Source: Actinomycetota bacterium (GTDB taxonomy: Bacteria; Actinomycetota; UBA4738; HRBIN12). From it: 47,275 bases of DNA. Positions 20,489 to 44,272 of the stretch are shown in pieces. Each line of letters begins with the position of its first letter. Position 1 is the first letter of the stretch. Below the pieces are notes generated by a model. That model made no database searches, had not been told where the DNA came from, and saw only the letters and a list, made by a program, of their open reading frames with translations. The stretch spans positions 1 through 47,275 of the forward strand of contig DATDJD010000375.1 of assembly GCA_036520695.1 (NCBI GenBank), read 5' to 3'. The translations under genes and the position numbers were made by a program.

Positions 20489-20763
20489 CACCGCTGCATC
20501 CTGCGCCGCAGCCGGTCCTGATCTACGAGGTCGTGTTCCGCACTGACGAGGCCTACTTCACCGTCGCCCACTTCGAACTGCGGCAGGACGCCGAAGCCGC
20601 AGCGGCCATCGGCAACGTCGGCCGCACCGAACGGGACAGCCGGTTCGAGGTAGCGGATCGGTTCATGTTCCGGGCCAACGACCAGCCGTTCGAGACGCTG
20701 GAGGATCTGAAGGAGACGCTGGAGGAAGTGATGGGCGACGTGGACGACTGGTTCGACGAATGA
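20485..20763 (+). CDS. hypothetical acidic protein
   Basis: GTGA overlap start; 92 aa. Confidence 0.55.
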   Translation: MTPLHPAPQPVLIYEVVFRTDEAYFTVAHFELRQDAEAAAAIGNVGRTERDSRFEVADRFMFRANDQPFETLEDLKETLEEVMGDVDDWFDE

Positions 20764-21791
20764 CTGAGGAAGCGAACGACGACGCGCGCCGCGAGTTCGT
20801 CGAGCAGCAGGCGTCCGGCCTCGGGGCCACCGATGCCGCGAAGATCCTCGGCCTGTCCCGCTGGGGGACCCCGCTGACGGTCTACAACCGGATCGTCCAC
20901 GGCGACACGGGCGGGCAGATGTCGCTCTCGGCCTGGCTCGGGCTGAAGCTCGAGCGAGTCGTGGGCGAGATGTACACGACCAAGACCGGCCAGGCGCTGC
21001 GGGTGGACAACAAGCACCACCGTCGCCCTGGCTACGATTGGCAGGTCGCACACTTAGACTTTCGTGCCCGGGGCAACCCGAAGCTGCTGGTGGAGTGCAA
21101 GACCCGGGCCTACGCCACCGGCTACGGCGAGGACGGGACGGGCGAGATCCCCGCGGACGTCTATGTCCAGGTGCAGCATGAGATGGCCGTGACCGGGGCC
21201 GAGCGCTGCGACGTGGCAGTCCTGATCGGGCACCATACGTTCAACGTCTACCCGATCCCGCGCGCCGACGACTTCATCGACAAGATGACCGAGCGGCTGG
21301 AAGCGTTCTGGCTCGGCAACATCGTGGCGAAGGTGCCACCGCTGCCGACCGGGCACGACATGGACAGCGACTACGTCAAGCGCAAGCACCCCGACCACGA
21401 CGATCTGCTGAAGCCTGCCACCCCGGAGCAGATCCTTCTCGCTAATCGGCTGCGTGTGGCCAGGGACACGGTGAAGGAAGCGGAGACGCAGCGGTCCGAG
21501 GTCGAGAACCTGCTGAAAGACATCATCGGGGACGCGGCAGGGTTGACCGGCCCGTTCGGGGAGATCACTTGGAAGAAGTCCCGCGACAGCGAGTCGGTGG
21601 ATTGGGAACAGGTTGCCATCACCTACGGCTCCGTCATCGAGGATCTGTTCACCATCGCCAACCCGGGCGACGATCCCGAAGTGGTCGCGCGGTTGGGTCG
21701 GGCGCAATCGGTCTACGGCACCGCCGTGGGCCTGGCCACCACCACCAAACCGGGGAGCCGTCGGTTCCTCGCCAGCTTCAAGAAGGACTGA
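20760..21791 (+). CDS. YqaJ-like recombination exonuclease (PD-(D/E)XK)
   Basis: 343 aa. Has GATDAAKILGLSRWGTP and HLDF...LLVECKT, which is D...ExK-like. Lies upstream of RecT. Confidence 0.75.
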   Translation: MTEEANDDARREFVEQQASGLGATDAAKILGLSRWGTPLTVYNRIVHGDTGGQMSLSAWLGLKLERVVGEMYTTKTGQALRVDNKHHRRPGYDWQVAHLDFRARGNPKLLVECKTRAYATGYGEDGTGEIPADVYVQVQHEMAVTGAERCDVAVLIGHHTFNVYPIPRADDFIDKMTERLEAFWLGNIVAKVPPLPTGHDMDSDYVKRKHPDHDDLLKPATPEQILLANRLRVARDTVKEAETQRSEVENLLKDIIGDAAGLTGPFGEITWKKSRDSESVDWEQVAITYGSVIEDLFTIANPGDDPEVVARLGRAQSVYGTAVGLATTTKPGSRRFLASFKKD

Positions 21792-21793
21792 CG

Positions 21794-22216
21794 ATGAGGG
21801 GTTGGATCTACGGTACTCCAAGCAGTCGGGACCGTCCCGATTGCCAGTGCTGGCGGGATACCTTGTGCCGCCACAAGGACGGGTGGACCTGGGACCCAAT
21901 CAATTGGGATGACTCGCCTTGCGAGCACCACACTTGGGCCTTCCTACCGGACGTCTTCATCAGTTTCGCAGACATGCTCCGAGACGCCGAGTTCGTCAGC
22001 GGTTCGCTGACTGCGGACCAGCGTGGTCGAGTCTTGTTTGGCTGGACAGCCGACCGGACTAGGGTCATCGAGGCATTCGTCATGCCCAAAGGAATGCCGG
22101 ACTCAGCGTTCGTGGACGACCACGACGTTGAGGGCAGCGAGTGGACGCCGCTGTTATATGCCCATTACACCGACATCGTTCCCCGAGGGAACGTGCGTAA
22201 GGAGATGATACGCTGA
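21794..22216 (+). CDS. hypothetical protein (lower-GC insert between exonuclease and RecT)
   Basis: 140 aa. Visibly lower GC and more A/T-ending codons than its neighbours. Confidence 0.5.
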   Translation: MRGWIYGTPSSRDRPDCQCWRDTLCRHKDGWTWDPINWDDSPCEHHTWAFLPDVFISFADMLRDAEFVSGSLTADQRGRVLFGWTADRTRVIEAFVMPKGMPDSAFVDDHDVEGSEWTPLLYAHYTDIVPRGNVRKEMIR

Positions 22217-23259
22217 TGCCTACCAACCCTGGACCCGCACCCGTCGCGACGCGCGCACTCGCCAAGCCCGAGGTCAACTATCAGGAGGTCGTGGATGAGA
22301 TGCGCGGGCAGTCCCGCAGCCTGCTGGCGATGTTCGCCGGAGACAAGCGGTTGCGCGACCGTTTCATGAGTTCGGCGCTGGCGATGCTGGCCCGCAACCC
22401 GGAGATCCTGCGCGACGCCACCCCGATCAGCATCGTGCACGCCATCAACGAGTCGGCCCGGTTGGGCCTGGAGCCGATGACGGAGGAGGCCGCGATCGTC
22501 GTGTACTCCGGCGTCGCCACGTTGCTGCCGCAGTGGCGCGGCTACGTCAAACGCATCCGCAACTCGGGCGAGGTCGTGGACTTCGACTGCCAGCTGGTCT
22601 ACTCCAACGACGACTTCCGTTGGCAGGCAGGGACGGATGCGTTCGTCCACCACGTCCCGGCACTGGAGGATCGCGGCGACCACTGGGGTGCCTACGCCTT
22701 CGCCATCATGCCTTCGGGCCGGGTCATCCCGGAAGTGATGACGTTCGCGGACATCGAAGCAGTCCGGTTGCAGTTCGGGAACACCAGATCCCGCAACAAC
22801 AAGCCGCTACCGTGGGAGACATCGTGGGGCGAGATGGCCCGCAAGACCGTCATCCGCCGACTGGCCAAGCGGCTGCCCGGTGCGGCGGTGAGCCATCTGC
22901 TGGAGGCCGACGCGCGGGCGGATCAGGTCATCGACGGCCAGGCGGCGAAGATCCGCGAACTGGACTCCGGGCTGTCCGAGGTCCGGAAGATGGCCCTGGC
23001 AGCCGTAGGCGTCCCAGAAGCGGAGCCGGACGACGATGTGGGCGAGGGGCAGGTTGTCGAGGTAACGGACCACCTGGACGCTCCAGCGGGCGCTGAGGAG
23101 CCGCTGACGGGCGGCATCGTGATGCACCCGGACGATGTGGCCGAGATCCGGGCAGGCGCGCTCGACACGGCTCCGGACCCGGGTGCCGACCCGAACGTAG
23201 CCGCAGCGATGAAACTCTCCGAGGAAGAGGAACAGCTGCGACGGAACCGTGGACGATGA
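22216..23259 (+). CDS. recT: RecT-family single-strand annealing protein
   Basis: 347 aa. Has ISIVHAINESARLGLEP, GYVKRIRNSGEV and WGEMARKTVIRRLAKRLP, followed by an acidic C-terminal tail. Confidence 0.8.
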   Translation: MPTNPGPAPVATRALAKPEVNYQEVVDEMRGQSRSLLAMFAGDKRLRDRFMSSALAMLARNPEILRDATPISIVHAINESARLGLEPMTEEAAIVVYSGVATLLPQWRGYVKRIRNSGEVVDFDCQLVYSNDDFRWQAGTDAFVHHVPALEDRGDHWGAYAFAIMPSGRVIPEVMTFADIEAVRLQFGNTRSRNNKPLPWETSWGEMARKTVIRRLAKRLPGAAVSHLLEADARADQVIDGQAAKIRELDSGLSEVRKMALAAVGVPEAEPDDDVGEGQVVEVTDHLDAPAGAEEPLTGGIVMHPDDVAEIRAGALDTAPDPGADPNVAAAMKLSEEEEQLRRNRGR

Positions 23260-23803
23260 CCGGGCCTGGTTGGCTACTGCGGATTGTCCGTTCACCAGTT
23301 GCCCGGATCGCGGCAGGCACACTTGGCTTGAGCATTGGCTCCTCGATTGGCGGATCCCACCACTCCCGTGGGTTCGCCGGACGCCAGCAACGTGTTGGCA
23401 TCTGGCCTACGGCATCCGGCTTGGTAGCGACCTGGTCAGTGTCTCCTGTCGTGGAGGTCGGTATGGGCACACCATCCCCGCGGCGACTGCCGAGTGGAGC
23501 GACAAGCCTCCGTTGGGCCGTTCCTACAACGACCCTGCCGGGAGAGCCTGTGCGCTCTGCTTATCTCGCTGGACCAAAGGAGTCGATCACGTGAGCGTTA
23601 CCATCCACGCTGTGAAGGTGAAGAAGGGCCAGCTGGCCAAGCTGCTGGAGGCTATTCCCGGTACCGACCTGATGGAGATCGAGCTACGGCCGACGCAGGT
23701 CGAAGGCAAGCCCGCCTTGCTGGCGTTGTTCACGGAGCGTGGCGGCAAGGAAGAAGTCGGAGTCCGGCTGCTCGTGGTCGGGGATGGGGTGGTGCGGCTG
23801 TGA
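23249..23803 (+). CDS. hypothetical Cys/Trp-rich protein (start and architecture uncertain)
   Basis: 184-aa ORF from GTG 23249. The 5' two-thirds has low GC3 (~67% by hand count). An internal GTG at 23591 follows a strong AAGGAG and could yield a separate 70-aa product. The alternative frame 23256..23594 has ATGA/GTGA couplings but a junk-like S/G/R/P composition. Confidence 0.35.
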   Translation: MDDDRAWLATADCPFTSCPDRGRHTWLEHWLLDWRIPPLPWVRRTPATCWHLAYGIRLGSDLVSVSCRGGRYGHTIPAATAEWSDKPPLGRSYNDPAGRACALCLSRWTKGVDHVSVTIHAVKVKKGQLAKLLEAIPGTDLMEIELRPTQVEGKPALLALFTERGGKEEVGVRLLVVGDGVVRL

Positions 23804-24132
23804 ACAAGAAGCGCATGAAGCGGCGGATCCGCCACCTGGAGCACGAGCTGTTCCAGGCCTACCATCCGACCACCTTCGACTACTTCACCGTGGACGTGGT
23901 GGTCAACGAGCCGAACGACGACGGGCCACTCATCCTGAGCTTCCCGCTGGACCACGCGGGCAACCATCAGATCGACGTCTCCCGAATGGGCCACAAGGTC
24001 GTACCGCTGCCGCGCGACGGTGTTCGGATTACCACTGCGGTCTTGGAGGAGACCCACAGCTGGCCGATCGGTGAAGCGGGGTTGACGGCTGCGCAGGCGA
24101 CCCGAGCGTTCGCGTTGGACCCCGAATGTTGA
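23800..24132 (+). CDS. hypothetical protein
   Basis: GTGA overlap start; 110 aa. Confidence 0.55.
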   Translation: MNKKRMKRRIRHLEHELFQAYHPTTFDYFTVDVVVNEPNDDGPLILSFPLDHAGNHQIDVSRMGHKVVPLPRDGVRITTAVLEETHSWPIGEAGLTAAQATRAFALDPEC

Positions 24133-24476
24133 CCGTCCGGAATGACGGTTGGGTGCAGGTTCGAAGTGCGGTGTTCAAGCGGGACGTCGGCTGCGTCGCG
24201 ACCCAGTGGCGCATCTTCGGGAACAACATCGCGCCTGATATGTGCCGTTCTCGCTGGGGCACGCCGATCGAGTGGGACGACTGGTCCGAGCTTGAGTTCG
24301 ACCACGTGAAGGAGAACCTCGAGGCCTCGAACAAGGCACCCGATGACGAGGCGCACGGTGTCGCGGTGTGTCCGTGGCACCATCGGCTGAGCCAAGTCTG
24401 GCGATCCGACAGCAAGTTCCATCGCGAACGCCTGCGCGACTGGCTGGCCAAGGCGTACCCCGAGGTGTGGTCGTGA
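24126..24476 (+). CDS. HNH endonuclease-like protein
   Basis: 116 aa. Has LEFDHVKENLEASNKAPDDEAHGVAVCPWHH, with H-N-H type spacing. Confidence 0.55.
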   Translation: MLTVRNDGWVQVRSAVFKRDVGCVATQWRIFGNNIAPDMCRSRWGTPIEWDDWSELEFDHVKENLEASNKAPDDEAHGVAVCPWHHRLSQVWRSDSKFHRERLRDWLAKAYPEVWS

Positions 24477-25216
24477 GGCCCGTACTCCGCTACCCGGGCA
24501 GCAAGGCGCGGTTGGCCGGAAGGATCGTCGCGATGATGCCAGAGCACGGTGCCTATCTGGAGCCGTTCTTTGGTTCGGGCGCCGTGCTGATGAACAAGGC
24601 GCGCTGCTCCACCGAGACGGTAAACGACCTGGACGGTAACGTGGTCAACTTCTTCACCGTTCTCCGCGACCAACCGGATCTGCTGGCTGGCGCGCTGGCG
24701 CTCACTCCCTACGCGCGGGACGAACTGGCGCGGCCACTTGTGTCGGACGACCCGGTCGAACGTGCCCGTTGGTTCGCGGTGGCACTGTGGCAATCGCGGG
24801 AAGGCGCGATCCGTGGATCGTCGCACTTTCGGGTGGATGTGAACGGGCGGGCGCTTGCGGCGACGTGGGCGCGGCTGCCAGGCAAGATCTTCGACGCTGC
24901 GCAACGGATGGTTGGGGTACAGATCGAGAACCGCGACGCGGTGGCGTTGATCGACGCGGCGCAACCGGGCACGCTCATCTACGCCGACCCACCTTACGTT
25001 GGGTTGGAACTGTACGGTGTCGGCTTTACCTTCCAAGACCACGAGCGGTTCCTGGAGGCAGCCGTGGCGCACGACGGGCCGGTCTTGATCTCCGGTCGCG
25101 AGTCCGGGCTGTACGACCGTAGGTTGCAGGGGTGGGACCGGCAGGTGGTAGAGACCAAGAAGATGAAGAACGTTCTCGAGGACGAGATCGTGTGGCGGAA
25201 CTATGCCAGTACGTGA
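24473..25216 (+). CDS. dam: DNA N6-adenine methyltransferase (Dam/D12 class)
   Basis: GTGA overlap start; 247 aa. Has RYPGSK, EPFFGSGAV (FxGxG) and YADPPY (motif IV). Confidence 0.85.
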   Translation: MRPVLRYPGSKARLAGRIVAMMPEHGAYLEPFFGSGAVLMNKARCSTETVNDLDGNVVNFFTVLRDQPDLLAGALALTPYARDELARPLVSDDPVERARWFAVALWQSREGAIRGSSHFRVDVNGRALAATWARLPGKIFDAAQRMVGVQIENRDAVALIDAAQPGTLIYADPPYVGLELYGVGFTFQDHERFLEAAVAHDGPVLISGRESGLYDRRLQGWDRQVVETKKMKNVLEDEIVWRNYAST

Positions 25217-25775
25217 GATGCGCGGGCGCTACCTAATGCGCGAGTTCTGGCAGGACGCAGAGATCCAGATTGACCTCTCCGACTCGGAGCGCTGGACGCT
25301 GGTCGGGTTGTGGATGCTGGCAGATGACGGGGGTTTCCTGGACTGGGATCTGCGGTACATCGGTAGCCAGCTGTACAACCATGAGGACCGCGCCGAACGC
25401 GAGCAGAAGGTAACCGACCACCTGGCCGCGATCGTGCGTGCCAAGAAGGCCAAGAAGTTCGCTTGCGGGCACGTGTTCCTGCCAGCCGCTGCCGAGTACG
25501 GTCGACCGGGGCGGAAGCTGCACGGGGTGGGCGATTATGGTGCTCGGGATGCTCATGCTGGGGAACCTTCTCGAAAGATGGGGCAACATTCTTCAAAGAA
25601 TGGTCAACGATCAGAAAAGATTACTCCACCTTACCTTACCTCACCTAACCTCAACCCTTCTCCAACCAGTCCTTTAGAGAGTTGTAAACCACGCGCTCGC
25701 CCGCGAGGGGCGGCGCTGTCCACCGTCGGCGACGAGATCGGCGAACTGAAGCGGAAGGTGGGCTGGGAAGGATGA
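25203..25775 (+). CDS. hypothetical protein, possible replication organiser (start uncertain)
   Basis: 190 aa. The N-terminus (FWQDAEIQIDLSDSERWTLVGLWMLADDGGFLDWD) resembles phage replisome-organiser N-domains. The 3' third is a low-GC repeat patch. Alternative ATGs are at 25218 and 25236. Confidence 0.4.
   Translation: MPVREMRGRYLMREFWQDAEIQIDLSDSERWTLVGLWMLADDGGFLDWDLRYIGSQLYNHEDRAEREQKVTDHLAAIVRAKKAKKFACGHVFLPAAAEYGRPGRKLHGVGDYGARDAHAGEPSRKMGQHSSKNGQRSEKITPPYLTSPNLNPSPTSPLESCKPRARPRGAALSTVGDEIGELKRKVGWEG
25565..25690. other. low-GC iteron-like patch (candidate replication origin) inside CDS 25203..25775
   Basis: Three ~21-bp units (GAAAGATGGGGCAAC / CAAAGAATGGTCAAC / GAAAAGATTACTCCA) are followed by pentamer repeats at 25627-25656 (ACCTT ACCTT ACCTC ACCTA ACCTC). 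The patch is much more AT-rich than its flanks. Confidence 0.35.
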
Positions 25776-25780
25776 TCTGA

Positions 25781-25813
25781 CCCCTTTACTTCTGTCGGTT
25801 AGTCCGGCATCAT
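25781..25813 (+). promoter_or_regulatory. promoter-like motif P3 (CCCCTTTACT, 17 nt, CATCAT)
   Basis: The -35 TTTACT is at 25785-25790 and the -10 CATCAT is at 25808-25813. The geometry matches the other five, but the upstream run is C rather than G. Confidence 0.45.
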
Positions 25814-26008
25814 TCGTGGTCGGACGGTGCGACGTGGTCACGGATGTCAAGGTCGGGACTAACAGACACCGGCACTACTTGGGAGAAGTTCGCCGCCTAA
25901 CGGCTGTGCGCTCCATTTCCTTCGGCCACTAGCGTGGTCGTCCCCTGGGTGCTCCGGCCACTCCCGGCCACCGTCCAACAATCGGATCTGACAGGAAAGG
26001 ATCAAGCA

Positions 26009-27109
26009 GTGACTGACTCCATCGCCGCATTCGAAGCGCGGATCGTCCCCGAACTGGCGCAGTTCGTCCGTCCCATCGGGGACGCCACGAGGCACCCGGA
26101 CAACATCCGCAAGCATCGCATCGACAAGATCGCGCAGAGCCTCCGGGCCCACGGCCAGCGCGCCGCCATCGTGGTCCAGAAGTCCACCGGCCTGATCGTG
26201 AAGGGCAACGGCACCCATGAAGCCGCGGAGCTTCTGGGGTGGACCGACATCGCGCAGATCTGGCAGGAGATGACCGACGAGGAAGCGTTGGCGTTCCTGT
26301 TCGCTGACAACAAGGCCAGCGACTTCAGCAGCTACGACCGGGACAAGACCGTGGCCGGGTTGAAGAAGCTCGCCGCTGGCCCGGGCCTGTTCGACTCCCT
26401 GTGGGAGATCGAGGAACTGGAGGATCTGGTCGAGCAAGCCGATGGCATGGCCGTTCTGGAAGCGCAGGGCACCACCGCAAGCCTGGCCACGGCAACCGCT
26501 GGCGGCACGCCGATCACCGAGGCTGCCAAGGCACCCCCGGAGCGGATGAAGGAGATCCCGCTGGTCATGACCCTGGCGGACCACTCGAAGTTCGTCGAGT
26601 CCCTGAAGGTGTTGGCCAAGCTGTTCAAGACCAACGGCACCATCGCCACCATCGTGGAAGCCGTGCGTCGCCAGGCTGCGGCCGAAGCGGGCGCACCGAT
26701 CGTCGGTTCGGCCGATCAGGATGCCGTGGTGTACGGAGCGCAGCGGGCGCTGGTCAAGGAACTGCGCGACTACATCGCCACCCAAGGCATCGAACGATCC
26801 TACTCCGGTACCTGGCTGATGGCGCAGCTGGAGTCGATGGTCCCGTACCGCGCGCAGCCAACGGCTGAGCCGGTGGTCGTTGGGCAAGTGGAAGCCTTCC
26901 CGGAGGGTGCAGAGGAGGCACCCGCAGTCAGCCCGCTACGGTCGCCGGATCCCCTCCCGGTGGCCGTAGCAGAGGCTGATACCGAGGACGACGTCGAGGC
27001 GCTCGAGATGCTGGCCCGGATCCGCAAAGGTGACGCCATGCCGCTGGTCCAAGCGCAGGCCGCAGCCGTCCTCGCCGCAGAGGCAGCCGATCCGAGCGCT
27101 GAACTGTGA
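26009..27109 (+). CDS. ParB-like nuclease domain protein
   Basis: GTG start after ggaaaggatcaagca; 366 aa. The N-terminus (HPDNIRKHRIDKIAQSLRAHGQRAAIVV...IVKGNGTHEAAELLGW) is ParB/Srx-like. Confidence 0.7.
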   Translation: MTDSIAAFEARIVPELAQFVRPIGDATRHPDNIRKHRIDKIAQSLRAHGQRAAIVVQKSTGLIVKGNGTHEAAELLGWTDIAQIWQEMTDEEALAFLFADNKASDFSSYDRDKTVAGLKKLAAGPGLFDSLWEIEELEDLVEQADGMAVLEAQGTTASLATATAGGTPITEAAKAPPERMKEIPLVMTLADHSKFVESLKVLAKLFKTNGTIATIVEAVRRQAAAEAGAPIVGSADQDAVVYGAQRALVKELRDYIATQGIERSYSGTWLMAQLESMVPYRAQPTAEPVVVGQVEAFPEGAEEAPAVSPLRSPDPLPVAVAEADTEDDVEALEMLARIRKGDAMPLVQAQAAAVLAAEAADPSAEL

Positions 27110-27501
27110 CCTTCGCACAGTGCACCGACTGCCCTGGGACAGTGATCGTCGGGCGGTACTCCACCATCACCGTCCCCCGGGTGGATGAGGAAGGCTTCCC
27201 CCAGCTGGGATCCGATGGGACGTTGCGCTACATCACGTTGCGGCTGCCCAATCACCGGGCCAGGTTCGTGTCCAGTAGCGGGCCGGACGTTCCGCACAGC
27301 ACCTTCGATCCGACCGGCCTTGCTCCGGCCGAATGCCAGCACGGGATCCCCGAGCATCCCGACGGAGTGCGACTGCGGTACGGTGGTCAGAGTTGGATCC
27401 GGTCGAAGTACCTCGATGTGGGTCGGGGGATCGGGGTGACCTGCCCTGTCTGCCGTGGCGAGGAAGCTCCCGAGGATCTGACCACTCCGAGAGTGGCGTG
27501 A
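27106..27501 (+). CDS. hypothetical zinc-ribbon protein (CTDC...CPVC)
   Basis: GTGA overlap start; 131 aa. Confidence 0.55.
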   Translation: MTFAQCTDCPGTVIVGRYSTITVPRVDEEGFPQLGSDGTLRYITLRLPNHRARFVSSSGPDVPHSTFDPTGLAPAECQHGIPEHPDGVRLRYGGQSWIRSKYLDVGRGIGVTCPVCRGEEAPEDLTTPRVA

Positions 27502-28496
27502 CCACCTATCGGCCCGTTCTCTCTGAGCATTCGGGCGACTGGCACGTCGAGAAGTTCGCGGAGTTCGATCGCCTGAAGGCACAGCTTGGCGAGCCGACCC
27601 CGCACATGAACATCGTCCGCTGGATGTCATCCGATGCAGATGATAGCGAACGACTGTGGCGGGCTGGAGCCTATGCCGCGGGCTACTCCGTCCTGACCGC
27701 AGAGGCGATCTGGCGGGAGTGGCCGGTGGAACGGGCAACGTCGGACCTGGCCGGACTGGAGGACTGGATCTTCGACAACTGGCAGGGCATCCACACCCGT
27801 ACCCCACGGCGGGCAGTTCGGACCCCGGATAAGTTCTTCCGCTGCCTGGCCAGCTACATCGACTGGATGCAGGCCGAACCGTTGCTGCACGATCGCTACG
27901 GCTACGACGCACCGTACGACGAGTGGTGGGCGTCGGCCAACAAGATCGACTTCATGGGCCGCTACATCGTCATCCGGCTGCTCGAGCTGCTGCGCCGCTG
28001 GGACTTCATGTCGGCGGAGCTGTATGACATCCGAGCGATGGAGGCCGAGTCCCCGATCCGGTGCCTGACGCTGCTGGTGCCCGAACGGGCCGGACCGCTG
28101 CTGGCGGGCGATACCAAGGTAGCGGACGAGATGGCCGACCTCATCTTGCGGGTGGCGTCGTCGGACCGGTCGTACTTCCGGTTCGCCGCGCTGCTCTGCG
28201 AGTACCGTAAGTCCTACGAGAACCAGGGCGACTACCCGGGCAACCAGACCGATGAGGAGTTGGGGTACACCTTCTCGAGGTACGCCACCTGGTGGTCTGA
28301 GCGAGGCCACGAGACGCAGCTGTTCGCGGCTCGCCGAGCGCTGGTGCCGGAGCAGGCGCGCGGCGAGAACCACGGCTGGGTTGGCCAACGGAAGCTGGCC
28401 GGATCCGCACTCCGCGAACACGGCGTCAATTGGACAGATATGCGTTACGATTGGGCTGCCTCGGAAGCAGCAGGAAGGCCGAAGGAATGGACGTAA
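27498..28496 (+). CDS. all-alpha protein of unrecognised family (candidate base-modifying transferase / aGPT-Pplase-like, by context only)
   Basis: GTGA overlap start; 332 aa. Trp/Arg-rich and helical (WRAGAYAAGYSVLTAEAIWREW, FMGRYIVIRLLELLRRW). Lies immediately upstream of the phosphatase, kinase and dioxygenase genes. Confidence 0.3.
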   Translation: MTTYRPVLSEHSGDWHVEKFAEFDRLKAQLGEPTPHMNIVRWMSSDADDSERLWRAGAYAAGYSVLTAEAIWREWPVERATSDLAGLEDWIFDNWQGIHTRTPRRAVRTPDKFFRCLASYIDWMQAEPLLHDRYGYDAPYDEWWASANKIDFMGRYIVIRLLELLRRWDFMSAELYDIRAMEAESPIRCLTLLVPERAGPLLAGDTKVADEMADLILRVASSDRSYFRFAALLCEYRKSYENQGDYPGNQTDEELGYTFSRYATWWSERGHETQLFAARRALVPEQARGENHGWVGQRKLAGSALREHGVNWTDMRYDWAASEAAGRPKEWT

Positions 28497-28939
28497 CCAA
28501 CCGCAAACGGCAAGGGGTGAACGCCATCATCCCGGGGCTGCTCTACCAGCGAGGTCACTTCCTGACCTGGCCGCACGAGCGCAAGATGACCATGCTGGAG
28601 GAACTCGGGATCTCCGTCGTCATCAACCTGTGGCACCGGGTGGACTCCGATCTGAGTCAGGACATCCCCGGGACGTTCTACATCAACGCACCGATGTCCC
28701 CGAGCGCCATGCCGCGGGACGCACGATCGCTGCTCGACTTCGCGGGCAAGCTGCTGGCAGCAGGGCATGTGACCCTCGTCCACTGCGAGGCAGGTAAGGG
28801 TCGTTCGGCGTGGTTTGCGACGCGCCTGATGGCGGAACGGTTGGGGATCTCGAAGGCGGAAGCCTGGCAGATCGTGCAACAGGCAGTGCCAGGCAACAGC
28901 GTGCACGGGCCGCTGCTGCGCGATCTGACGGAGGAGTAA
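28487..28939 (+). CDS. Cys-based (dual-specificity/PTP-fold) phosphatase
   Basis: 150 aa. The P-loop VHCEAGKGRS fits HCx5R(S/T). RBS is gaagga. Confidence 0.75.
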   Translation: MDVTNRKRQGVNAIIPGLLYQRGHFLTWPHERKMTMLEELGISVVINLWHRVDSDLSQDIPGTFYINAPMSPSAMPRDARSLLDFAGKLLAAGHVTLVHCEAGKGRSAWFATRLMAERLGISKAEAWQIVQQAVPGNSVHGPLLRDLTEE

Positions 28940-28942
28940 GGA

Positions 28943-29488
28943 ATGGACGCACTCTACGTAATCGGAGAACCAGGGGTGGGCAAGTCAACGTTCGTGAAAC
29001 GGCTGACCGACGGCCTACCGCACGAGGACGGCACCAGCCCGTTCGCCTTCCGGGCCTACGACTGCGGAGTCTACGAGTTGGGCGCGCGTCGCCCGGACTA
29101 CCCTGGCACGGATGCACTAGGTATGTCGGTTCAGCCGATCGTCGAGCAGTTCCTGGAGGGAATGAAGCCGCTGTATCTGCTGGCTGAGGGGGACCGGTTG
29201 GCGAATGCCAAGTTCTTTGACTTCCTCATCAGGATCGGGTACAATCTGCACGTGGTCATCTTGCGCGGACCGGAGGTCGCAGCGGTGCAGCGGAAGCTGC
29301 GCGGCTCGAACCAGGACCCGACGTGGCTGAAGGGGCGGCAGACCAAGGTGGCACGACTGGCCGAGCGGTTCGGTGGGGACGTGGTCGCGGCGGGCCGTCC
29401 CCTGGCGCAGATGGTCGAGGACGTGAACAATCCCGTGACGGAGCGGCTCGCCGAGGCGCGAGTCCTGGAGGCACTCGATGCAGTTTAG
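28943..29488 (+). CDS. P-loop kinase/NTPase (candidate 5-hydroxymethylpyrimidine DNA kinase)
   Basis: 181 aa. Walker A is GEPGVGKST at residues 8-16. LYLLAEGD is Walker B-like. Confidence 0.6.
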   Translation: MDALYVIGEPGVGKSTFVKRLTDGLPHEDGTSPFAFRAYDCGVYELGARRPDYPGTDALGMSVQPIVEQFLEGMKPLYLLAEGDRLANAKFFDFLIRIGYNLHVVILRGPEVAAVQRKLRGSNQDPTWLKGRQTKVARLAERFGGDVVAAGRPLAQMVEDVNNPVTERLAEARVLEALDAV

Positions 29489-30479
29489 CGAGATCCGCGT
29501 TCGCACCCGCATCCACCCCGACGAACTGGAAGCCAAGAAGGGCCTCGTCCTCGAATCTGGTGATCTGGATATCCAACTCACCGGGCCGACGATCGTCAAG
29601 AAGGCCACCGGGGAACGGTTGGCGACGTACCTGCCCGGTGTTCTGAAGGACCTGTCGGAGCCGATGTACGACATCCTCCATGGCCTGAAGGGCTACCAGA
29701 CCGACAACCGCGGGCTGGCATCCGGGTCTGGCCGAGGAGCGATGCGCGCTGGCCGGGAGTTGGCGGAACAGGTTGCGGAAGGGCAGTCTCGGACCCGGTC
29801 GATGCCGATCAGTAGCGCGATCGTCGGCAGCTTCGACGCCAAGCCACCCAAGAACTACTGCCGACTGACCGCCTGGACCGGCAAGGAGTGGGAGCAATAC
29901 CGTGGGTTGTTCCCATACTTCCAGCGGATCGGCGCTCACTTCGCCGAGCACGTGCCAGATCGGTACGCGGCGCAGATGGACGTGGTGAGTGAAACCAACC
30001 CGGATTGGGTGATCGAGGGGACACCCTTCTCGACCGCAACCGTAAATAACAGTTATCCCACAGGCGTGCACACCGATAGCGGCGACCTGGAGTCCGGCTT
30101 CAGCAACCTGGCAGTCATCCGGCGCGGCAACTACAGCGGCGGGATCTTCACCTTTGCCGAGTACCGCATCGGGGTTGACATGCAGGACGGGGACCTGCTG
30201 CTGATGGACGCGCACGAGTGGCACGGCAACACGAGCATGTGGTGCAACGTGTGCGGCGACCGCATCGGCCCGGGTGGCCGCGACGACCACGACGTGACCT
30301 GCGGGGTGGAACGGATTTCCACGGTGGCGTACTATCGAACCAAAGTCGCGAAGTGCGGATCCGCCGAGGAGGAGCAACGCCGGGCCATCGCGTGGCGGGA
30401 GCGCACGATTGCACTCGGCGGCGGGGCCGTCGACCCCGAAGTCATCGAGCAGATGGCTGCTGAAGCGGCGGGCGGCTAA
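29478..30479 (+). CDS. 2OG-Fe(II) dioxygenase, TET/JBP-like (candidate DNA base hydroxylase)
   Basis: 333 aa. Has VNNSYPTGVHTDSGD (HxD). A second His in AHEWHGNT lies ~49-52 residues later. A distal Arg sits in ERISTVAYYR. A CNVC...HDVTC insert lies between the His and Arg strands. Confidence 0.6.
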   Translation: MQFSEIRVRTRIHPDELEAKKGLVLESGDLDIQLTGPTIVKKATGERLATYLPGVLKDLSEPMYDILHGLKGYQTDNRGLASGSGRGAMRAGRELAEQVAEGQSRTRSMPISSAIVGSFDAKPPKNYCRLTAWTGKEWEQYRGLFPYFQRIGAHFAEHVPDRYAAQMDVVSETNPDWVIEGTPFSTATVNNSYPTGVHTDSGDLESGFSNLAVIRRGNYSGGIFTFAEYRIGVDMQDGDLLLMDAHEWHGNTSMWCNVCGDRIGPGGRDDHDVTCGVERISTVAYYRTKVAKCGSAEEEQRRAIAWRERTIALGGGAVDPEVIEQMAAEAAGG

Positions 30480-30928
30480 TGCCACGCAAGGGCTACAAGC
30501 AATCGCCCGAACACATTGCCGCGAGGATCTCCCCGCTGGTAGGCCGTAAGCGCGGGCCGATGAGCGATGAGCAGAAGGCCAAGCAAAGCGCGATTATGAA
30601 GGGCCGGGTGCTTACCCCGGAACACCGCGCGAAGGTGATCCAGACGCTGCGGCCGGGAACCTTCAATCGGGGCCGAAGGCGTGGCCCGTGGTCGGACGAG
30701 GTCCGCGCCAGGATCGGGGCCTCCGGCAAGGGCAAGCACTCGGAGCCGTGGCCGGTCAAAGGTGAGTGCGTCTACTGCGGCGGTGAGGCGACCACCCGCG
30801 ACCATGTCATCCCCAAAGGGCGTCCGGGCTGGGAAGCTCCGGACAACCTCGTGTTGGCTTGCCTGCCGTGCAACGCGAGCAAGGGACCGCGCACTCCGGA
30901 AGAGTGGCTCGCGGCGCTCACCTCGTGA
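30479..30928 (+). CDS. HNH homing endonuclease with three NUMOD3-like repeats
   Basis: 149 aa. The repeats are GYKQSPEHIAARIS, GRVLTPEHRAKVIQ and GPWSDEVRARIGAS. The HNH part is CVYCGGEATTRDHVIP...DNLVLACLPCNASK. Confidence 0.75.
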   Translation: MPRKGYKQSPEHIAARISPLVGRKRGPMSDEQKAKQSAIMKGRVLTPEHRAKVIQTLRPGTFNRGRRRGPWSDEVRARIGASGKGKHSEPWPVKGECVYCGGEATTRDHVIPKGRPGWEAPDNLVLACLPCNASKGPRTPEEWLAALTS

Positions 30929-31212
30929 TGATCTGCGGTGACCGGGTGCGCCTGGCCGCAGAACTCAGCCTATGCGACGACGGAACAATCGTCCACCGTG
31001 ACATCACCGGCATGGTGGTGGGTGGCAAGGGGAAGGATGGAGTGGTGGTGTCATGGGACGACCCGCGCGGACTTACGAGCCTCGTCCGGGAGCCGGACCT
31101 ACAGACCATCAACCGTGCCGGGGGTTCCCCGAGGACAAGCCTTGTGTCGTCACCGTACCCGCGACGACGCTCTACTGTCGTTCCTGCCGGGAAGCTCGCC
31201 AGCAGTTCATAG
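30925..31212 (+). CDS. hypothetical protein, upstream frame of a possibly split gene
   Basis: GTGA overlap start. It reads as protein-like up to ...LVREPDLQTINRAGG (about 31124) and then becomes S/R/P-rich. Confidence 0.4.
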   Translation: MMICGDRVRLAAELSLCDDGTIVHRDITGMVVGGKGKDGVVVSWDDPRGLTSLVREPDLQTINRAGGSPRTSLVSSPYPRRRSTVVPAGKLASSS

Positions 31213-31406
31213 CGGCAGGTATCCCGCTGTCCGGGGTGCTGCCCATCGGGATCATCTTGGAGGACTTCAACGCACCGCTGCTGGTGTGTCGCTGCGGTGG
31301 CGACCCGACCGCACCGAACCATCGCTTCTCGCTGACGCACCGGGCCTGGGAGTGGAAGCAGAGTAGCCCGGAAGGAGCGTTCCAGGACCGCCGAAAGTTT
31401 GTGTAG
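31053..31406 (+). CDS. hypothetical Cys-rich protein, downstream frame of a possibly split gene
   Basis: Protein-like from about 31116 (PCRGFPEDKPCVVTVPATTLYCRSC...). The only start codon is ATG 31053, which lies 160 nt inside the upstream ORF. Confidence 0.35.
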   Translation: MGRPARTYEPRPGAGPTDHQPCRGFPEDKPCVVTVPATTLYCRSCREARQQFIAAGIPLSGVLPIGIILEDFNAPLLVCRCGGDPTAPNHRFSLTHRAWEWKQSSPEGAFQDRRKFV

Positions 31407-31409
31407 AAA

Positions 31410-31444
31410 GGGGGGTTTACATTTCGCAACGGATGGCGCATGAT
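31410..31444 (+). promoter_or_regulatory. promoter-like motif P4 (GGGGGGTTTACA, 17 nt, CATGAT)
   Basis: The -35 is at 31416-31421 and the -10 is at 31439-31444. The spacer shares cGGATGGCGCAT with P1. Confidence 0.6.
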
Positions 31445-31489
31445 TACGTCAACGGGTCGAACGGAGGACCCGGCAGACGGAAGGAATGG

Positions 31490-31795
31490 ATGAAGATGGC
31501 TGAGATCACCGGGTTCTGGATGGCTAGCAATGAGACCATCCACGCGGCGGGTTGCGCTCACGCGATCAAGCTCCGCGTACTGTTCGATGCTCCCACGATC
31601 GAATACGCGAAGAAGTACGCCGACGAGCCCCGAAACGTGCGCGTGGCGCCGTGCGCCAAGAAGGCGGTGGCGAAGAAGCGCAAGACGTTCAACCCGGGAC
31701 CGGGCGATGGGAACTGCTTTCATTGCGGCACCAACGGCGAGGCGCACGCTAGGATCGGTGGGTTCCCAGTCTACTGCCCGGAGCCGGTTCGATGA
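31490..31795 (+). CDS. hypothetical protein
   Basis: RBS ggaagga at 31479-31485. Start is ATG 31490 or 31496; 101 aa. Confidence 0.55.
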   Translation: MKMAEITGFWMASNETIHAAGCAHAIKLRVLFDAPTIEYAKKYADEPRNVRVAPCAKKAVAKKRKTFNPGPGDGNCFHCGTNGEAHARIGGFPVYCPEPVR

Positions 31796-31950
31796 TCTGC
31801 AAGCAGTGCGGCATCGACACTCCCCGCCTTCGCCTACGTCAGCGCTACTGCCCGACCTGCGAGGTCGCGGTCGAGAAGCAGCTGCGATGGTTCGCGCGGA
31901 TCCCGCGTTGGCCGTTCGGCAAGGATCTGACGTGGTGGGTGCGGGCATGA
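31792..31950 (+). CDS. small zinc-ribbon protein (not in the supplied ORF track)
   Basis: ATGA overlaps at both ends; 52 aa. Sequence is MICKQCGIDTPRLRLRQRYCPTCEVAVEKQLRWFARIPRWPFGKDLTWWVRA. Confidence 0.5.
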   Translation: MICKQCGIDTPRLRLRQRYCPTCEVAVEKQLRWFARIPRWPFGKDLTWWVRA

Positions 31951-32306
31951 GCCAGCGCAATCTGGTCCTGCGCCTGCTCCGTGAGGCCGGACCCGAAGGG
32001 GTCGATAATCACGCTCTCGTATATGTCTATGGCGTGACGAGAGCCGCGTCCATCGTCCACGGCTTGCGGATCGATGGGCATCCCGTCGATACCATCGACC
32101 GCGGGTTCGCACCCGACGGTAGGCGAAGGCTCTGCACCTACGTCCTCAGAGGCGCTCAGGCGTCCCAGGCGGCTCCCGCGATCCCAAGTGAGCCAGGTGC
32201 GCCCGCTCCCGAGCTACCGCTGCCCTGTGGCTGTATTCGAGCCGCTGGCGGGATGGCGTGGAAGTCGCGTTGCGAGCGCCACGATCGGAACCAGGAGGCG
32301 ATATGA
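31947..32306 (+). CDS. winged-helix/HTH DNA-binding protein
   Basis: ATGA overlap start; 119 aa. Has LVLRLLREAGPEGVDNHALVYVYGVTRAASIVHGLRIDGHPV. Confidence 0.5.
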   Translation: MSQRNLVLRLLREAGPEGVDNHALVYVYGVTRAASIVHGLRIDGHPVDTIDRGFAPDGRRRLCTYVLRGAQASQAAPAIPSEPGAPAPELPLPCGCIRAAGGMAWKSRCERHDRNQEAI

Positions 32307-32584
32307 CGACCGAACCGCAGACGACGGCCGGCCGGGCGCTGCTCAAACGCGAGGAACTCAACAGCCGCTCGTTCGCGCTCATCACGACCGACGCCATCGT
32401 CGCCATCGAACGCGAAGCCGCCACCCGCGCCCGCTCCGGGCTGGACGCGGGGCTGCTGTACGAGGCCATTCGTCGGACTTGGGTCGCAGGGCACGACGAT
32501 CTGCGGAGCGGGCTGACTACGGACCCGATCGAGGCGACGCTCGCCGCCGCCATCCTCGCCCGTCTCACCGAGGCCGAGTCGTGA
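32303..32584 (+). CDS. mosaic small-gene family member 1
   Basis: ATGA overlap start; 93 aa. Shares the N-terminal TEPQT motif and a 66-bp block (AIEREAATRARSGLDAGL) with member 4. Confidence 0.6.
   Translation: MTTEPQTTAGRALLKREELNSRSFALITTDAIVAIEREAATRARSGLDAGLLYEAIRRTWVAGHDDLRSGLTTDPIEATLAAAILARLTEAES
32391..32456 (+). repeat. 66-bp dispersed repeat, copy A
   Basis: 63/66 identical to 33211-33276 (acgccatcgtcgccatcgaacgcgaagccgccacccgcgcccgctccggg...). Confidence 0.9.
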
Positions 32585-36665: not shown

Positions 36666-37796
36666 ATGCCGAAGGAACTGCCGACGATCTACCTGAAGGC
36701 GGGCCAGACCGTCGTCGTGAGCGGTCCCGCGCCGCTGACCCACAACTACGACAAGGCCAAGACGCGCATCCGTGCGACGGCTCCGGGGACCTACGTCGAA
36801 CCGGGAGATCCAGACCCGCCCGGTCCGCCCGATCCCCCGACCGCGCGGACGGGCCTCATCATCGACCGCGCGGTGCTGATGGCATTGCCGACCAGCGGTC
36901 CGGCTTGGAACGCGGTCGTAGCAGCGGCAGGGCAGCCCATCAGCCCGTCGCTCTCCGATCAGGACAGTCCGGCCAACGTGCGCTGCCTTGCTGCGGCACT
37001 GGTAGCGGCTCGGACCGGCGACAACGCGAAGCGGGCAGCGGTGGTCAATGCGTTGCGGACACTCAGAACTGCCAGCCTCGACCGAGCGCTGGCGCTGGCA
37101 CGCGAACTGCCAGCCTATGTGATCGCGGCGGACCTCATCGGTGTGACGGATGCAGAGCTTGGCTACGACTTCAAAGCCTGGCTGCGACAGATCGTCGTTG
37201 CTCCGACATCGGGAGGTCCGTCGTCGCTCACGGCGTCCGCCAAGGAACGTCCGAACAACTGGGGCACCCACGCTCATGCGGCGCTGGCAGCGGCTTGGGC
37301 CTACGTCGGGGACCAGGCCAAGCTCGATGAGGCGCACGCCATCGTGTTGGGTTGGTTGGGGGATCGGTCGAAGTACAGCGGCTTCAAGTACGGCGACCTG
37401 GCGTGGCAGGCCGATCCATCGAAGCCGGTCGGCATCAATGCGGTTGGTACGAAGATCCAAGGCCACGACGTCGACGGTGCGCTGCCCGAGGAGATGCGCC
37501 GATCCGGTGGCTTCAGCTGGCCTCCGCCGAAGCAGAACTACTGCTGGGAAGCGTTGCAGGGGTCGTTCTTGGCGGTGCTCATCCTGCAACGGACGGGCCG
37601 CGAGACGGTCTCCGCCAGCAGCAATGCGTTGGAGCGTGCCTACGAGTGGTTGGTTGGGGCCGCATCCTTCCCACCTTCCGGCGACGACACCTTCCTGATC
37701 CCGATGTGCAACGCGATGTACGGGGTCACGGACGCGGTCAACTCCCCGGTCGGCCAGGGCAAGAACTTCGGCTTCAGTGATTGGCTGTGGCCGTGA
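36666..37796 (+). CDS. alginate-lyase-like (alpha/alpha)-toroid protein; candidate envelope polysaccharide lyase/depolymerase
   Basis: 376 aa; RBS aggagga. Has a small N-domain and a Pro-rich linker (PGDPDPPGPPDPP). The helical body carries ERPNNWGTHAHAALAAAWAYVGDQ, which resembles the NNHSYW region of alginate lyases. Confidence 0.4.
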   Translation: MPKELPTIYLKAGQTVVVSGPAPLTHNYDKAKTRIRATAPGTYVEPGDPDPPGPPDPPTARTGLIIDRAVLMALPTSGPAWNAVVAAAGQPISPSLSDQDSPANVRCLAAALVAARTGDNAKRAAVVNALRTLRTASLDRALALARELPAYVIAADLIGVTDAELGYDFKAWLRQIVVAPTSGGPSSLTASAKERPNNWGTHAHAALAAAWAYVGDQAKLDEAHAIVLGWLGDRSKYSGFKYGDLAWQADPSKPVGINAVGTKIQGHDVDGALPEEMRRSGGFSWPPPKQNYCWEALQGSFLAVLILQRTGRETVSASSNALERAYEWLVGAASFPPSGDDTFLIPMCNAMYGVTDAVNSPVGQGKNFGFSDWLWP

Positions 37797-42479: not shown

Positions 42480-42556
42480 GCGGTAGTGCGTTGTTGGGGT
42501 TGGCATTCTTGGCCCTGGCGTTCGTCTTGGGAGTACTGGTCGGAGGGTGCTTGTGA
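42476..42556 (+). CDS. possible 26-aa hydrophobic peptide
   Basis: ATGA and GTGA couplings at both ends, but it uses several TTG Leu codons that are atypical for this genome. Confidence 0.25.
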   Translation: MSGSALLGLAFLALAFVLGVLVGGCL

Positions 42557-44055: not shown

Positions 44056-44240
44056 CCATCACCCTCCTGCGGGATGGCGTCCGCCACCGGATCCGTAGCC
44101 GCGAAGATGACCCTCGGGTCGCATGGACGGAGTGCGGCCTGCGAGTAGCATTCGTTGCGCCGTGTGATCCGACGAGCGCGTATCAGCGGCGGGTGCGCCA
44201 CGACTGCGGGCCGGGTAAGTCGTGCGAGGCCTGCGGATAG
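44052..44240 (+). CDS. hypothetical small Cys-containing protein
   Basis: GTGA overlap start; 62 aa. Confidence 0.45.
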   Translation: MTITLLRDGVRHRIRSREDDPRVAWTECGLRVAFVAPCDPTSAYQRRVRHDCGPGKSCEACG

Positions 44241-44272
44241 GGGTTTACATTCACCGATTGTTCCGGTAACGT
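44240..44272 (+). promoter_or_regulatory. promoter-like motif P6 (GGGGTTTACA, 17 nt, TAACGT)
   Basis: The -35 is at 44244-44249 and the -10 is at 44267-44272. It lies between the portal block and the protease gene. Confidence 0.5.

Follow-up and report, generated by a model that had tools for sequence, protein, structure and literature searches.

The stretch of DNA analyzed here, hereafter the window, is contig DATDJD010000375.1 of assembly GCA_036520695.1 (47,275 nucleotides, Actinomycetota). It is the complete, circularly permuted genome of a siphovirus-type phage, the plus strand of which carries essentially all genes. Positions 25934-30479 hold a cassette of six genes coding, in this order, for a ParB-like protein, a zinc-ribbon-like protein, an amino-acid:DNA transferase (AADT), a dual-specificity-type cysteine phosphatase (DSP), a P-loop kinase and a TET/JBP-family Fe(II)/2-oxoglutarate (2OG) dioxygenase (Table 1). 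We propose that this cassette directs the hypermodification of thymine in polymerized DNA. The core of such a pathway is already known; the new part is the module formed by the transferase and the phosphatase, together with its link to inositol-phosphate synthase.

Organization of the Cassette

The original prediction, made from the nucleotide sequence alone, described an operon of five tightly coupled genes following the ParB-like gene and a promoter-like motif named P3. The five plus-strand open reading frames (ORFs) and their junctions were found exactly as described, and so were the catalytic motifs read in the dioxygenase (iron and 2OG ligands), the kinase (Walker A) and the phosphatase (loop). 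The ParB-like gene overlaps the zinc-ribbon gene, and the latter the transferase gene, by four nucleotides (GTGA) in each case; the transferase and phosphatase genes overlap by 10 nucleotides, 3 nucleotides separate the phosphatase gene from the kinase gene, the kinase and dioxygenase genes overlap by 11 nucleotides, and the dioxygenase gene overlaps a downstream HNH gene by a single nucleotide. In-frame GC content at third codon positions ranges from 0.77 to 0.83 across the five ORFs. The 131-aa ORF coding for the zinc-ribbon-like protein, which has the value of 0.77, is regarded as a real gene because it has homologues (five among 5.8 billion proteins) at 52-64% identity.

While the composition of the five-gene operon stands, the upstream ParB-like gene, which probably codes for an activator of the dioxygenase, had been overlooked as a member. 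It belongs to the cassette and is counted in it because ParB-dependent phage thymine dioxygenases were demonstrated in 2026 (PMC13229309). The promoter P3 could not be recovered: a scan for sigma-70-type promoters over positions 23800-32500 returned two sites against 1.0 ± 1.0 expected, none of them upstream of the ParB-like gene, and consensus promoter and terminator matches in this interval occur at chance level only. The case for an operon is thus made by the coupled junctions and not by promoter evidence. Related loci were gathered from IMG/VR, metagenomes and a protein database, a four-sequence transferase alignment serving as the query of the locus finder, and every ORF in them was scored with hidden Markov models (HMMs) of the components. 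The same gene order recurs in three of these loci (L036, L064 and L002), and related orders are found in 17 loci of the TET type.

A Transferase with a Remodeled Pocket

The 332-aa product of the third gene had been described as an all-alpha protein of no recognizable family. The first half of this description is borne out by its AlphaFold model, which is all-alpha (pLDDT 94, pTM 0.91); the second is not, as the protein is an AADT of the aGPT-Pplase2 fold, the very downstream enzyme that the original prediction expected in such a pathway. It matches the Pfam family PF18724 (ADDT) with 29.8 bits against a cut-off of 26.2. A sequence-profile search of the PDB with this protein returned nothing, and a comparison of folds was needed: the sole real PDB match to the model is the crystal structure of gp46 of the Pseudomonas phage PaMx11, a glycinyltransferase acting on 5-phosphomethyl-dU (8z2n, 8z2m; probability 1.0, TM 0.51-0.60).

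In gp46, Trp146, Lys150 and Asp24 hold glycine, while Glu243 and Thr244 hold a metal beside the catalytic Cys247 (PMC11472151). Equivalent residues were compared, in gp46 numbering, across an alignment of 26 AADTs made up of 19 members of the subclade to which the window enzyme belongs and seven others. The catalytic cysteine, C234 in the window, is invariant in all 26 sequences, and the window enzyme also keeps the RR..R motif of gp46 (R104, R105 and R108) and two tyrosines of the pocket (Y59 and Y63). The co-substrate residues are not kept: W146, K150 and D24 are replaced by Y156, R160 and T34, respectively, and the position of W146 is occupied by a tyrosine in 19 of 19 subclade members, versus a tryptophan in six of the seven other AADTs. 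The metal-binding pair E243/T244 corresponds to A230/A231 in the window, whereas Glu-Thr is kept by all seven AADTs outside the subclade. An acidic residue immediately follows the catalytic cysteine (E235 in the window) in all 19 members. The replacement of W146, K150 and D24 points to a different co-substrate and does not speak against the fold or the cysteine mechanism. In a phylogenetic tree, the window transferase falls in a monophyletic subclade apart from the enzymes of the Pseudomonas phages M6 and PaMx11 and of the actinophages Wooper and Tonitrus. One protein (P0218, 761 aa) carries two tandem transferase domains of this subclade (residues 26-345 and 435-746), with no phosphatase domain attached.

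A Phosphatase Tied to the Transferase Subclade

The phosphatase matches PF00782 (DSPc) with 36.5 bits against a cut-off of 33.5, and its active-site loop C100-x5-R106-S107 is invariant in eight homologues whose overall identity is as low as 17-45%. The profile built from these eight homologues retrieved DUSP28 and other DSPs from the PDB (E 3e-13); these are generic DSPs and give no hint of the substrate.

De-duplication at 95% identity left 29 distinct AADTs of the subclade, 26 of which are evaluable, i.e. are followed by at least 450 bp of downstream sequence. A DSP is present in all 26 evaluable loci, within 50 bp in 21 of them and at 415-1,450 bp, with inserted genes, in the remaining five; the loci that carry it span 31-68% GC, and the three subclade members without a phosphatase all stop at a contig edge. 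None of the 25 true control loci outside the subclade, including eight with AADTs of other clades, contains a DSP. The set outside the subclade initially comprised 27 loci; two of them, L034 and L060, turned out to be truncated duplicates of contigs from the subclade, and the sole DSP match was located in one of these (L034, of the L035 type). By BLAST alone, L019 appeared to be a phosphatase-less locus, a reading that was rejected because one of its ORFs shows the CX5R loop and is confirmed by the HMM.

The adjacency of transferase and phosphatase holds although the surrounding genes change. In two loci (L030 and L033), the two genes lie side by side while the kinase, a much more divergent TET protein and ParB are encoded on the opposite strand. 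In five others (L052, L061, L062, L065 and L066), they accompany a different source of 5-hydroxymethyluracil (5hmU) and a different kinase family, namely a thymidylate-synthase-family enzyme and a PF18748-type kinase, along with a DNA polymerase of their own. In L056, transferase and phosphatase form a single 477-aa protein with no internal stop. A profile searched exhaustively against 1.84 billion representatives yielded 212 family members at E <= 1e-30. Among the best 150 of these 212, 13 unite transferase and phosphatase in a single chain and have kept the CX5R-S loop intact; one of these fusions, P0266, matches the L056 protein at 476 of 477 positions. Taken together, these comparisons argue strongly that phosphatase and transferase act together and that the former is an obligate partner of the subclade. 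Because the phosphatase follows the transferase subclade, a role tied to the kinase or to the dioxygenase is argued against.

A Possible Link to Inositol Phosphate

All five thymidylate-synthase-type loci mentioned above carry, directly upstream of the AADT gene and overlapping or nearly abutting it, a gene for a PF01658 protein (Inos-1-P_synth, myo-inositol-1-phosphate synthase). In the tree, four of the five corresponding transferases make up the sister group to the branch that holds the window enzyme, and transferases of the inositol loci share the residues that distinguish the window enzyme (T34, P103, Y156, R160, A230 and E235). The transfer of inositol, or of inositol phosphate, is proposed because the pocket is remodeled and because the synthase gene adjoins the transferase gene. 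The synthase yields a phosphorylated cyclitol; completion of the free cyclitol, or of a cyclitol-DNA adduct, would call for a phosphatase. Actinomycetota make inositol-1-phosphate for mycothiol and phosphatidylinositol, which could explain how a phage of such hosts might dispense with a synthase gene. In the literature searched, Iyer et al. 2013 (NAR) excepted, no link of a phosphatase or of inositol to these pathways was found.

Several accessory genes were observed in transferase-phosphatase loci. A FkbM-type methyltransferase occurs in three distinct loci (e.g. L049 1397-2125 and L045 169-828), a HAD hydrolase in two (L010 3875-4513 and L041 1554-2216), a radical SAM/SPASM enzyme in one (L053 2055-3044), and a TET-associated glycosyltransferase (TAGT) in L035 (4022-4897) and L063 (7104-7811), with a weak match in L053. 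Their variety suggests that the modification is further tailored in some phages. In two loci of the inositol-synthase type, a C5-cytosine DNA methyltransferase is encoded near the thymidylate-synthase homologue (L052 1015-2184 and L062 10080-10940), and these phages may also modify cytosine.

Predicted Formation of the Substrate on Polymerized DNA

The dioxygenase scores 64.3 bits with PF12851 (Tet_JBP; E 1e-17), the cut-off being 34.9, and the same Pfam search returned no AlkB or P4H family at E <= 0.1. The signature VHTDSGD begins at residue 197 (H198 and D200), EWHGNT at residue 247 (H249, 51 residues after H198) and ERISTVAYYR at residue 278 (R279 and R287); all five residues are invariant in alignments of 10 and of 45 sequences, and 1,024 homologues were retrieved at E <= 1e-10. 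A sequence-profile search of the PDB returned nothing for this protein either, making a fold comparison necessary. With the predicted model (pLDDT 85, pTM 0.84) as a query, the 26 highest-ranking PDB entries found by Foldseek are CcTet, NgTET1, human TET2 and CMD1 (E 8e-12 to 2e-7), and the AlkB-family proteins FTO, ALKBH1 and ABH2 appear only from rank 27 onward (E >= 6e-6). By both Pfam and fold, the enzyme hence groups with TET proteins rather than with AlkB repair enzymes or protein hydroxylases. An invariant cysteine, C293, which may correspond to C280 of 5mYOX176, is followed by about 40 C-terminal residues that form two helices in the model. A cysteine-rich insert, CNVCGDRIGPGGRDDHDVTCG, occupies residues 256-275 between the second iron-binding histidine and the 2OG-binding arginine; conservation of its C256 and C259 reaches 90% or more across the 45 homologues, the insert is absent from L010, L019 and L042, and it may form a small zinc site.

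The earlier claim that the genome codes for no hydroxymethylase, C5-methyltransferase or DNA polymerase holds. A Pfam search of 75 ORFs revealed no thymidylate synthase/hydroxymethylase, C5-methyltransferase or DNA polymerase among the 25 families listed out of 34 matched (E <= 1e-4), and genuine sequences of these enzymes taken from related loci, run by tblastn against the whole window in six frames, gave a best E value of 0.058. Since the genome is devoid of these three enzymes, 5hmU would have to arise from thymine on polymerized DNA. Judging from its family, fold and context, and from the absence of another source of 5hmU or 5-methylcytosine (5mC), the dioxygenase is most likely the enzyme that converts thymine into 5hmU.

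The kinase belongs to PF18751 (Ploopntkinase3; 80.1 bits, E 2e-22) and carries its Walker A motif, GEPGVGKS, at residues 8-15. The same family gives 199 bits with the annotated 5-hmU DNA kinase of Wooper and 171 bits with the kinase of Tonitrus. It is a family of base-modification operons, which sets the window protein apart from housekeeping nucleotide kinases. Natural kinase-TET fusions, with PF18751 at the N terminus and PF12851 at the C terminus (L041 2206-3741, 511 aa; P0096, 488 aa), argue that hydroxylation and phosphorylation are functionally coupled. This context, fusions included, leads us to predict that the kinase is a 5hmU DNA kinase. Homologues about 40% identical to it are found in 367 records of Mycobacterium phages (e.g. 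Orion, NC_008197 31-483), with genomes of approximately 68-71 kb among those sampled, where the gene is usually gene 1 and is annotated as "adenylate kinase" or "terminase small subunit".

The ParB-like protein matches phrog_620 (E 1.2e-22), and its residues 60-127 match the N-terminal domain of Noc/ParB in the PDB. With the Pfam family ParB_N it reaches only 21.8 bits where the cut-off is 26.3, and no helix-turn-helix or other DNA-binding Pfam domain was detected at E <= 0.1. The ParB of the ParB-dependent subclass is described as combining an N-terminal nucleotide-binding domain with a C-terminal dimerization domain and as lacking a DNA-binding domain (PMC13229309). A ParB homologue is encoded near the dioxygenase in 17 of 26 loci of a first clustering and in most TET-type loci of the subclade. 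In the window, four cassette genes separate the ParB-like gene from the dioxygenase gene, their junctions all overlapping or nearly abutting. By analogy with the ParB-dependent enzymes of PMC13229309, the ParB-like protein is probably an activator of the thymine dioxygenase.

The zinc-ribbon-like protein has no Pfam or PHROG match. It bears a CxxC motif at residues 6 and 113, and within its family C77, H79, H84, C113 and C116 are invariant while the N-terminal CxxC is kept by eight of nine members. Where both flanks are visible, its gene lies between those of ParB and the AADT (L035, L036, L063 and L064); in L040 it lies just upstream of the transferase gene. No copy was found in loci of the inositol-synthase type. 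This distribution places the protein with the ParB/dioxygenase half of the cassette. As the ParBs associated with 5mYOX enzymes are reported to lack a DNA-binding domain (PMC13229309), a role of the zinc-ribbon protein in DNA binding or specificity is conceivable, although this is speculation.

Nine sister loci of the same dioxygenase clade (L009, L012-L014, L016, L018, L020, L021 and L025) associate ParB, a TAGT and TET, and carry neither kinase nor transferase. For that reason, this dioxygenase clade appears to feed at least two downstream chemistries.

Proposed Pathway and Alternatives

The original prediction held that thymine in polymerized DNA is converted into 5hmU, phosphorylated and further substituted, a sequence of events supported by the families and folds of the enzymes and by the enzymes absent from the genome. 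We favor, with moderate confidence, a four-step version of it that uses a phosphorylated co-substrate and is finished by the phosphatase. First, the TET/JBP dioxygenase, probably assisted by the ParB-like protein, would hydroxylate thymine to 5hmU. Second, the P-loop kinase would phosphorylate the hydroxymethyl group to give 5-phosphomethyl-U. Third, Cys234 of the AADT would attack C6 and expel the phosphate, a nucleophile being added to the exocyclic methylene, as extrapolated from PaMx11 gp46 and M6 gp51. Finally, the cysteine phosphatase would perform the step specific to this transferase subclade: the co-substrate would be phosphorylated, most likely as 1L-myo-inositol-1-phosphate supplied by the phage where a synthase gene is present and by the host in the case of the window, and the phosphatase would strip the phosphate before or after transfer to leave an inositol-substituted thymine. 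This last step, with a phosphorylated and possibly inositol-phosphate co-substrate, is inferred from the comparative evidence presented above.

The full chain of assumptions, in which a ParB-assisted TET protein makes 5hmU, the transferase uses inositol-1-phosphate drawn from the host and the phosphatase dephosphorylates, would give phage DNA containing a cyclitol-type thymine, 5-(myo-inosityl-oxymethyl)uracil or a close relative. We advance this product only tentatively and would not be surprised if it proved otherwise. By calculation, an inositol ether of 5hmdU would be C16H24N2O11, with a monoisotopic mass of 420.138 ([M+H]+ 421.145), and its phosphorylated form would have a value of 500.104. 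If correct, inositol-thymine would add a new class to the naturally occurring DNA bases, and the pathway would be the first in DNA hypermodification to pair a phosphorylated co-substrate with a phosphatase that finishes the product. The underlying module, composed of the transferase subclade, the cysteine phosphatase and sometimes the inositol-phosphate synthase, recurs across diverse metagenomes. Its six-gene, fully post-replicative version would need neither a phage polymerase nor a modified nucleotide pool, and should be portable to heterologous hosts. Hypermodification protects phage DNA from restriction enzymes and CRISPR nucleases, and the enzymes responsible are now used to map and label DNA bases.

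Several points weigh against this pathway. The window kinase has no match at E <= 0.1 to PF18748 (HMUDK_HMUD1), to which M6 gp54, a proven kinase, belongs (65 bits), while PaMx11 gp49 belongs to neither family and gives only generic P-loop matches; moreover, we know of no PF18751 member that has been assayed. Adjacency is the only ground on which the dioxygenase of this phage would depend on ParB. The ADDT score of the transferase barely exceeds the cut-off, and the glutamate that is essential in M6 gp51 and PaMx11 gp46 (E243) is an alanine in the window, such that the mechanism may be different. Regarding inositol, no inositol-phosphate synthase is encoded in the window, and the synthase is present in only five of the 26 evaluable loci and in none of the TET type. 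The case for inositol in this phage is built on phylogenetic proximity and on what is generally known of inositol-1-phosphate in Actinomycetota, and some TET-type loci are marine contigs of 45-49% GC whose hosts may not make this compound. Finally, the accessory genes of transferase-phosphatase loci vary, and so may their products.

Among the alternatives, we regard as unlikely that the phosphatase is an eraser or proofreader that returns unreacted 5-phosphomethyl-U to 5hmU so that none is packaged, the transferase adding an ordinary amino acid or amine. DSP-fold enzymes often act on non-protein phosphomonoesters, and the phosphatase gene sits between the transferase and kinase genes. The phosphomonoester in DNA is, moreover, the sole phosphorylated species certain to occur in the pathway (PMC8989533). 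Such an eraser should nevertheless serve any system with a kinase and an AADT, yet the phosphatase is confined to one subclade (26 of 26 loci versus none of the true controls, eight of which have other AADTs) and accompanies the transferase whichever of two kinase families and of two sources of 5hmU is present. Its fusions, in the loci and long representatives examined, are with the transferase and never with the kinase, and an eraser leaves both the inositol-phosphate synthase genes and the remodeled pocket unexplained.

Improbable to a similar degree is a reversed order of events with the same end product, in which the phosphatase would act before transfer, like an inositol monophosphatase, to make a free nucleophile such as myo-inositol. 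Free myo-inositol is classically made in two steps, by an inositol-phosphate synthase and then by a phosphatase, the gene order in the five inositol loci is synthase, transferase, phosphatase, and a fusion to the transferase would channel the product. However, the phosphatase is kept in all 17 TET-type loci, which have no synthase gene, and a phage copy would seem dispensable in actinobacterial hosts, which have free inositol and monophosphatases of their own. The replacement of K150 by R160 in the pocket would also suit a phosphorylated ligand.

We give very little credit to a host-directed or regulatory protein phosphatase, which would counter a kinase-based defence or regulate ParB/TET and be merely linked genetically. 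Its nearest solved relatives by sequence are indeed protein phosphatases, namely DUSP28, DUSP16, archaeal PTPs and TpbA, but such a role fits poorly with a strict co-occurrence with one transferase subclade over the whole 31-68% GC range, with the 13 independent fusion proteins found among the best 150 of 212 representatives, and with its absence from all other TET/ParB/kinase loci examined. It is just as hard to credit that there is no thymine hypermodification at all, the dioxygenase acting on 5mC to give 5hmC or being an AlkB-like repair enzyme or protein hydroxylase, next to a nucleotide kinase: phage TETs that oxidize 5mC exist, 5mYOX97 and 5mYOX176 also do so in vitro (PMC13229309), and GenBank annotators name relatives of the kinase "adenylate kinase", but no C5-methyltransferase is encoded in the genome, the dioxygenase falls with TET rather than AlkB by fold as well as by Pfam, the kinase belongs to the base-modification family PF18751 with TET fusions in other phages, and an AADT with an intact catalytic cysteine is present.

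Relation to Known Systems

The novelty of the core of the four-step pathway was overrated in the original prediction. Work of 2021 both predicted it and observed it in metaviromes (PMC8989533), experiments published in 2026 demonstrated its thymine dioxygenase step (PMC13229309), and annotations of cultured actinophages include it. Lee et al. showed how hypermodified thymidines arise via 5-phosphomethyl-dU through the action of 5-hmdU DNA kinases and aGPT-Pplase2 enzymes, and described metavirome TET_JBP contigs with a kinase and an aGPT-Pplase2 enzyme and without a dUMP hydroxymethylase (PMC8989533). Phage thymine dioxygenases were then demonstrated by O'Toole et al. (PNAS 2026), who found their ParB-dependent subclass to be "consistently linked" to P-loop kinases and AADTs (PMC13229309). 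The original prediction was right, in turn, that the combination with a cysteine phosphatase and a zinc-ribbon protein is part of no described pathway.

Among the closest known systems are the 5mYOX clade C1 clusters (PMC13229309), which share with the window a TET/JBP enzyme with a ParB homologue, a P-loop kinase and an AADT, the absence of a neighboring C5-methyltransferase and, as predicted for the window, a post-replicative mode of action. The stretch of about 40 residues after C293 in the window dioxygenase may correspond to the C-terminal extension of this subclass. In contrast, neither a phosphatase nor an associated zinc-ribbon protein is mentioned for them in the main text or the preprint (PMC13229309). 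Gordonia phage Wooper (OP910132) and Rhodococcus phage Tonitrus (PP978825) are likewise actinophages with annotated ParB, Tet-like JBP, aGPT-Pplase2 and kinase genes, the kinases belonging to PF18751, and with no hydroxymethylase in the stretch examined. However, the Tonitrus proteins are only 38% (kinase), 25% (dioxygenase) and 25% (transferase) identical to those of the window, the transferases of both phages retain the gp46 residues at the co-substrate (Trp/Lys) and metal (Glu-Thr) sites, and their loci have another gene order, with a gene of about 290 aa after the kinase and neither a phosphatase nor a zinc-ribbon gene. L004 and L022, which are related to the Wooper/Tonitrus type, carry a flavin adenine dinucleotide (FAD) oxidoreductase.

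In the Pseudomonas phages PaMx11 (gp46-gp49) and M6 (gp51-gp54), 5hmU is also phosphorylated within DNA before a cysteine-dependent transferase displaces the phosphate (PMC8989533, PMC11472151), and the window transferase shares with that of PaMx11 the gp46 fold, the catalytic cysteine, the RR..R motif and the two pocket tyrosines. These phages differ in making 5hmU before replication with a thymidylate-synthase homologue and a polymerase of their own, in having no phosphatase, and in using glycine as a co-substrate, held by W146, K150 and D24 at the positions occupied by Y156, R160 and T34 in the window. Base J of kinetoplastids, made by JBP1/2 and a glucosyltransferase, and the phage TAGT loci rely on the same logic of a TET/JBP enzyme hydroxylating thymine, with a polyol-type group attached via the hydroxymethyl carbon. 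A nucleotide-sugar glycosyltransferase does so in those systems, as opposed to a phosphate ester and a cysteine transferase in this operon, and no TAGT was detected by tblastn in the window. Finally, MshA/MshA2 of the mycothiol pathway and the phosphatidylinositol-phosphate synthase/phosphatase of Actinobacteria use inositol-1-phosphate and then dephosphorylate the product. The proposed logic of a phosphorylated cyclitol acting as acceptor or nucleophile, followed by a dedicated finishing phosphatase, is the same; this is an analogy without homology, and the acceptor here would be DNA.

Genomic Setting

Table 1. Genes of the hypermodification cassette and other features of the phage genome.
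Feature	Positions	Strand	Remarks
ParB-like protein, 391 aa	25934..27109	+	Cassette
Zinc-ribbon-like protein, 131 aa	27106..27501	+	Cassette
Amino-acid:DNA transferase (AADT, aGPT-Pplase2 fold), 332 aa	27498..28496	+	Cassette
Dual-specificity-type Cys phosphatase (DSP), 150 aa	28487..28939	+	Cassette
P-loop kinase, 181 aa	28943..29488	+	Cassette
TET/JBP-family Fe(II)/2OG dioxygenase, 333 aa	29478..30479	+	Cassette
HNH endonuclease	30479-30928		NUMOD3 homing-endonuclease motif; 1-nt overlap with dioxygenase stop codon
D12-class N6-adenine DNA (Dam) methyltransferase	24368-25216		Just upstream of cassette
RecE-like and RecT recombination pair	20760-23259		Just upstream of cassette
Small and large terminase, portal, protease, capsid	40117-46940		Packaging and head genes
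Glycerophosphotransferase-like gene	1014-1895		Directly after capsid gene
Two-domain glycosyltransferase	1889-3193		
SAM methyltransferase	3133-3759		
Methyltransf_24 gene	3564-4343		
Tape-measure gene	7066-9216		

The proteins of this phage are all labelled "hypothetical protein" in the NCBI record, and neither megablast of the cassette region nor tblastn of the transferase against 50,697 phage records gave a match. The large terminase is at best 40% identical to that of any phage record, and the dioxygenase finds only partial matches in cultured phages, at 25-38% identity; the phage therefore has no close cultured relative. A profile scan of 185,579 bacterial and archaeal genomes with the transferase found no prophage copy, and hence gave no clue to the host.

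The D12-class methyltransferase gene suggests that virion DNA probably contains N6-methyladenine as well. The HNH gene that follows the dioxygenase was rejected as a member of the system, considering its NUMOD3 motif and the lack of any tblastn counterpart in the 29 related loci compared, and probably represents a mobile homing endonuclease. Further candidates for a role in DNA modification were the glycosyltransferase and methyltransferase genes located at 1014-4343. Such a role is improbable, as they belong to the structural module, where they follow the capsid gene at some 23 kb from the operon, a position that suggests virion glycosylation. The latter has been described for some actinophages. 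Elsewhere in the genome, positions 36666-37796 code for a 376-aa protein with an alginate-lyase-like domain (E 1.9e-7), which may be a depolymerase.

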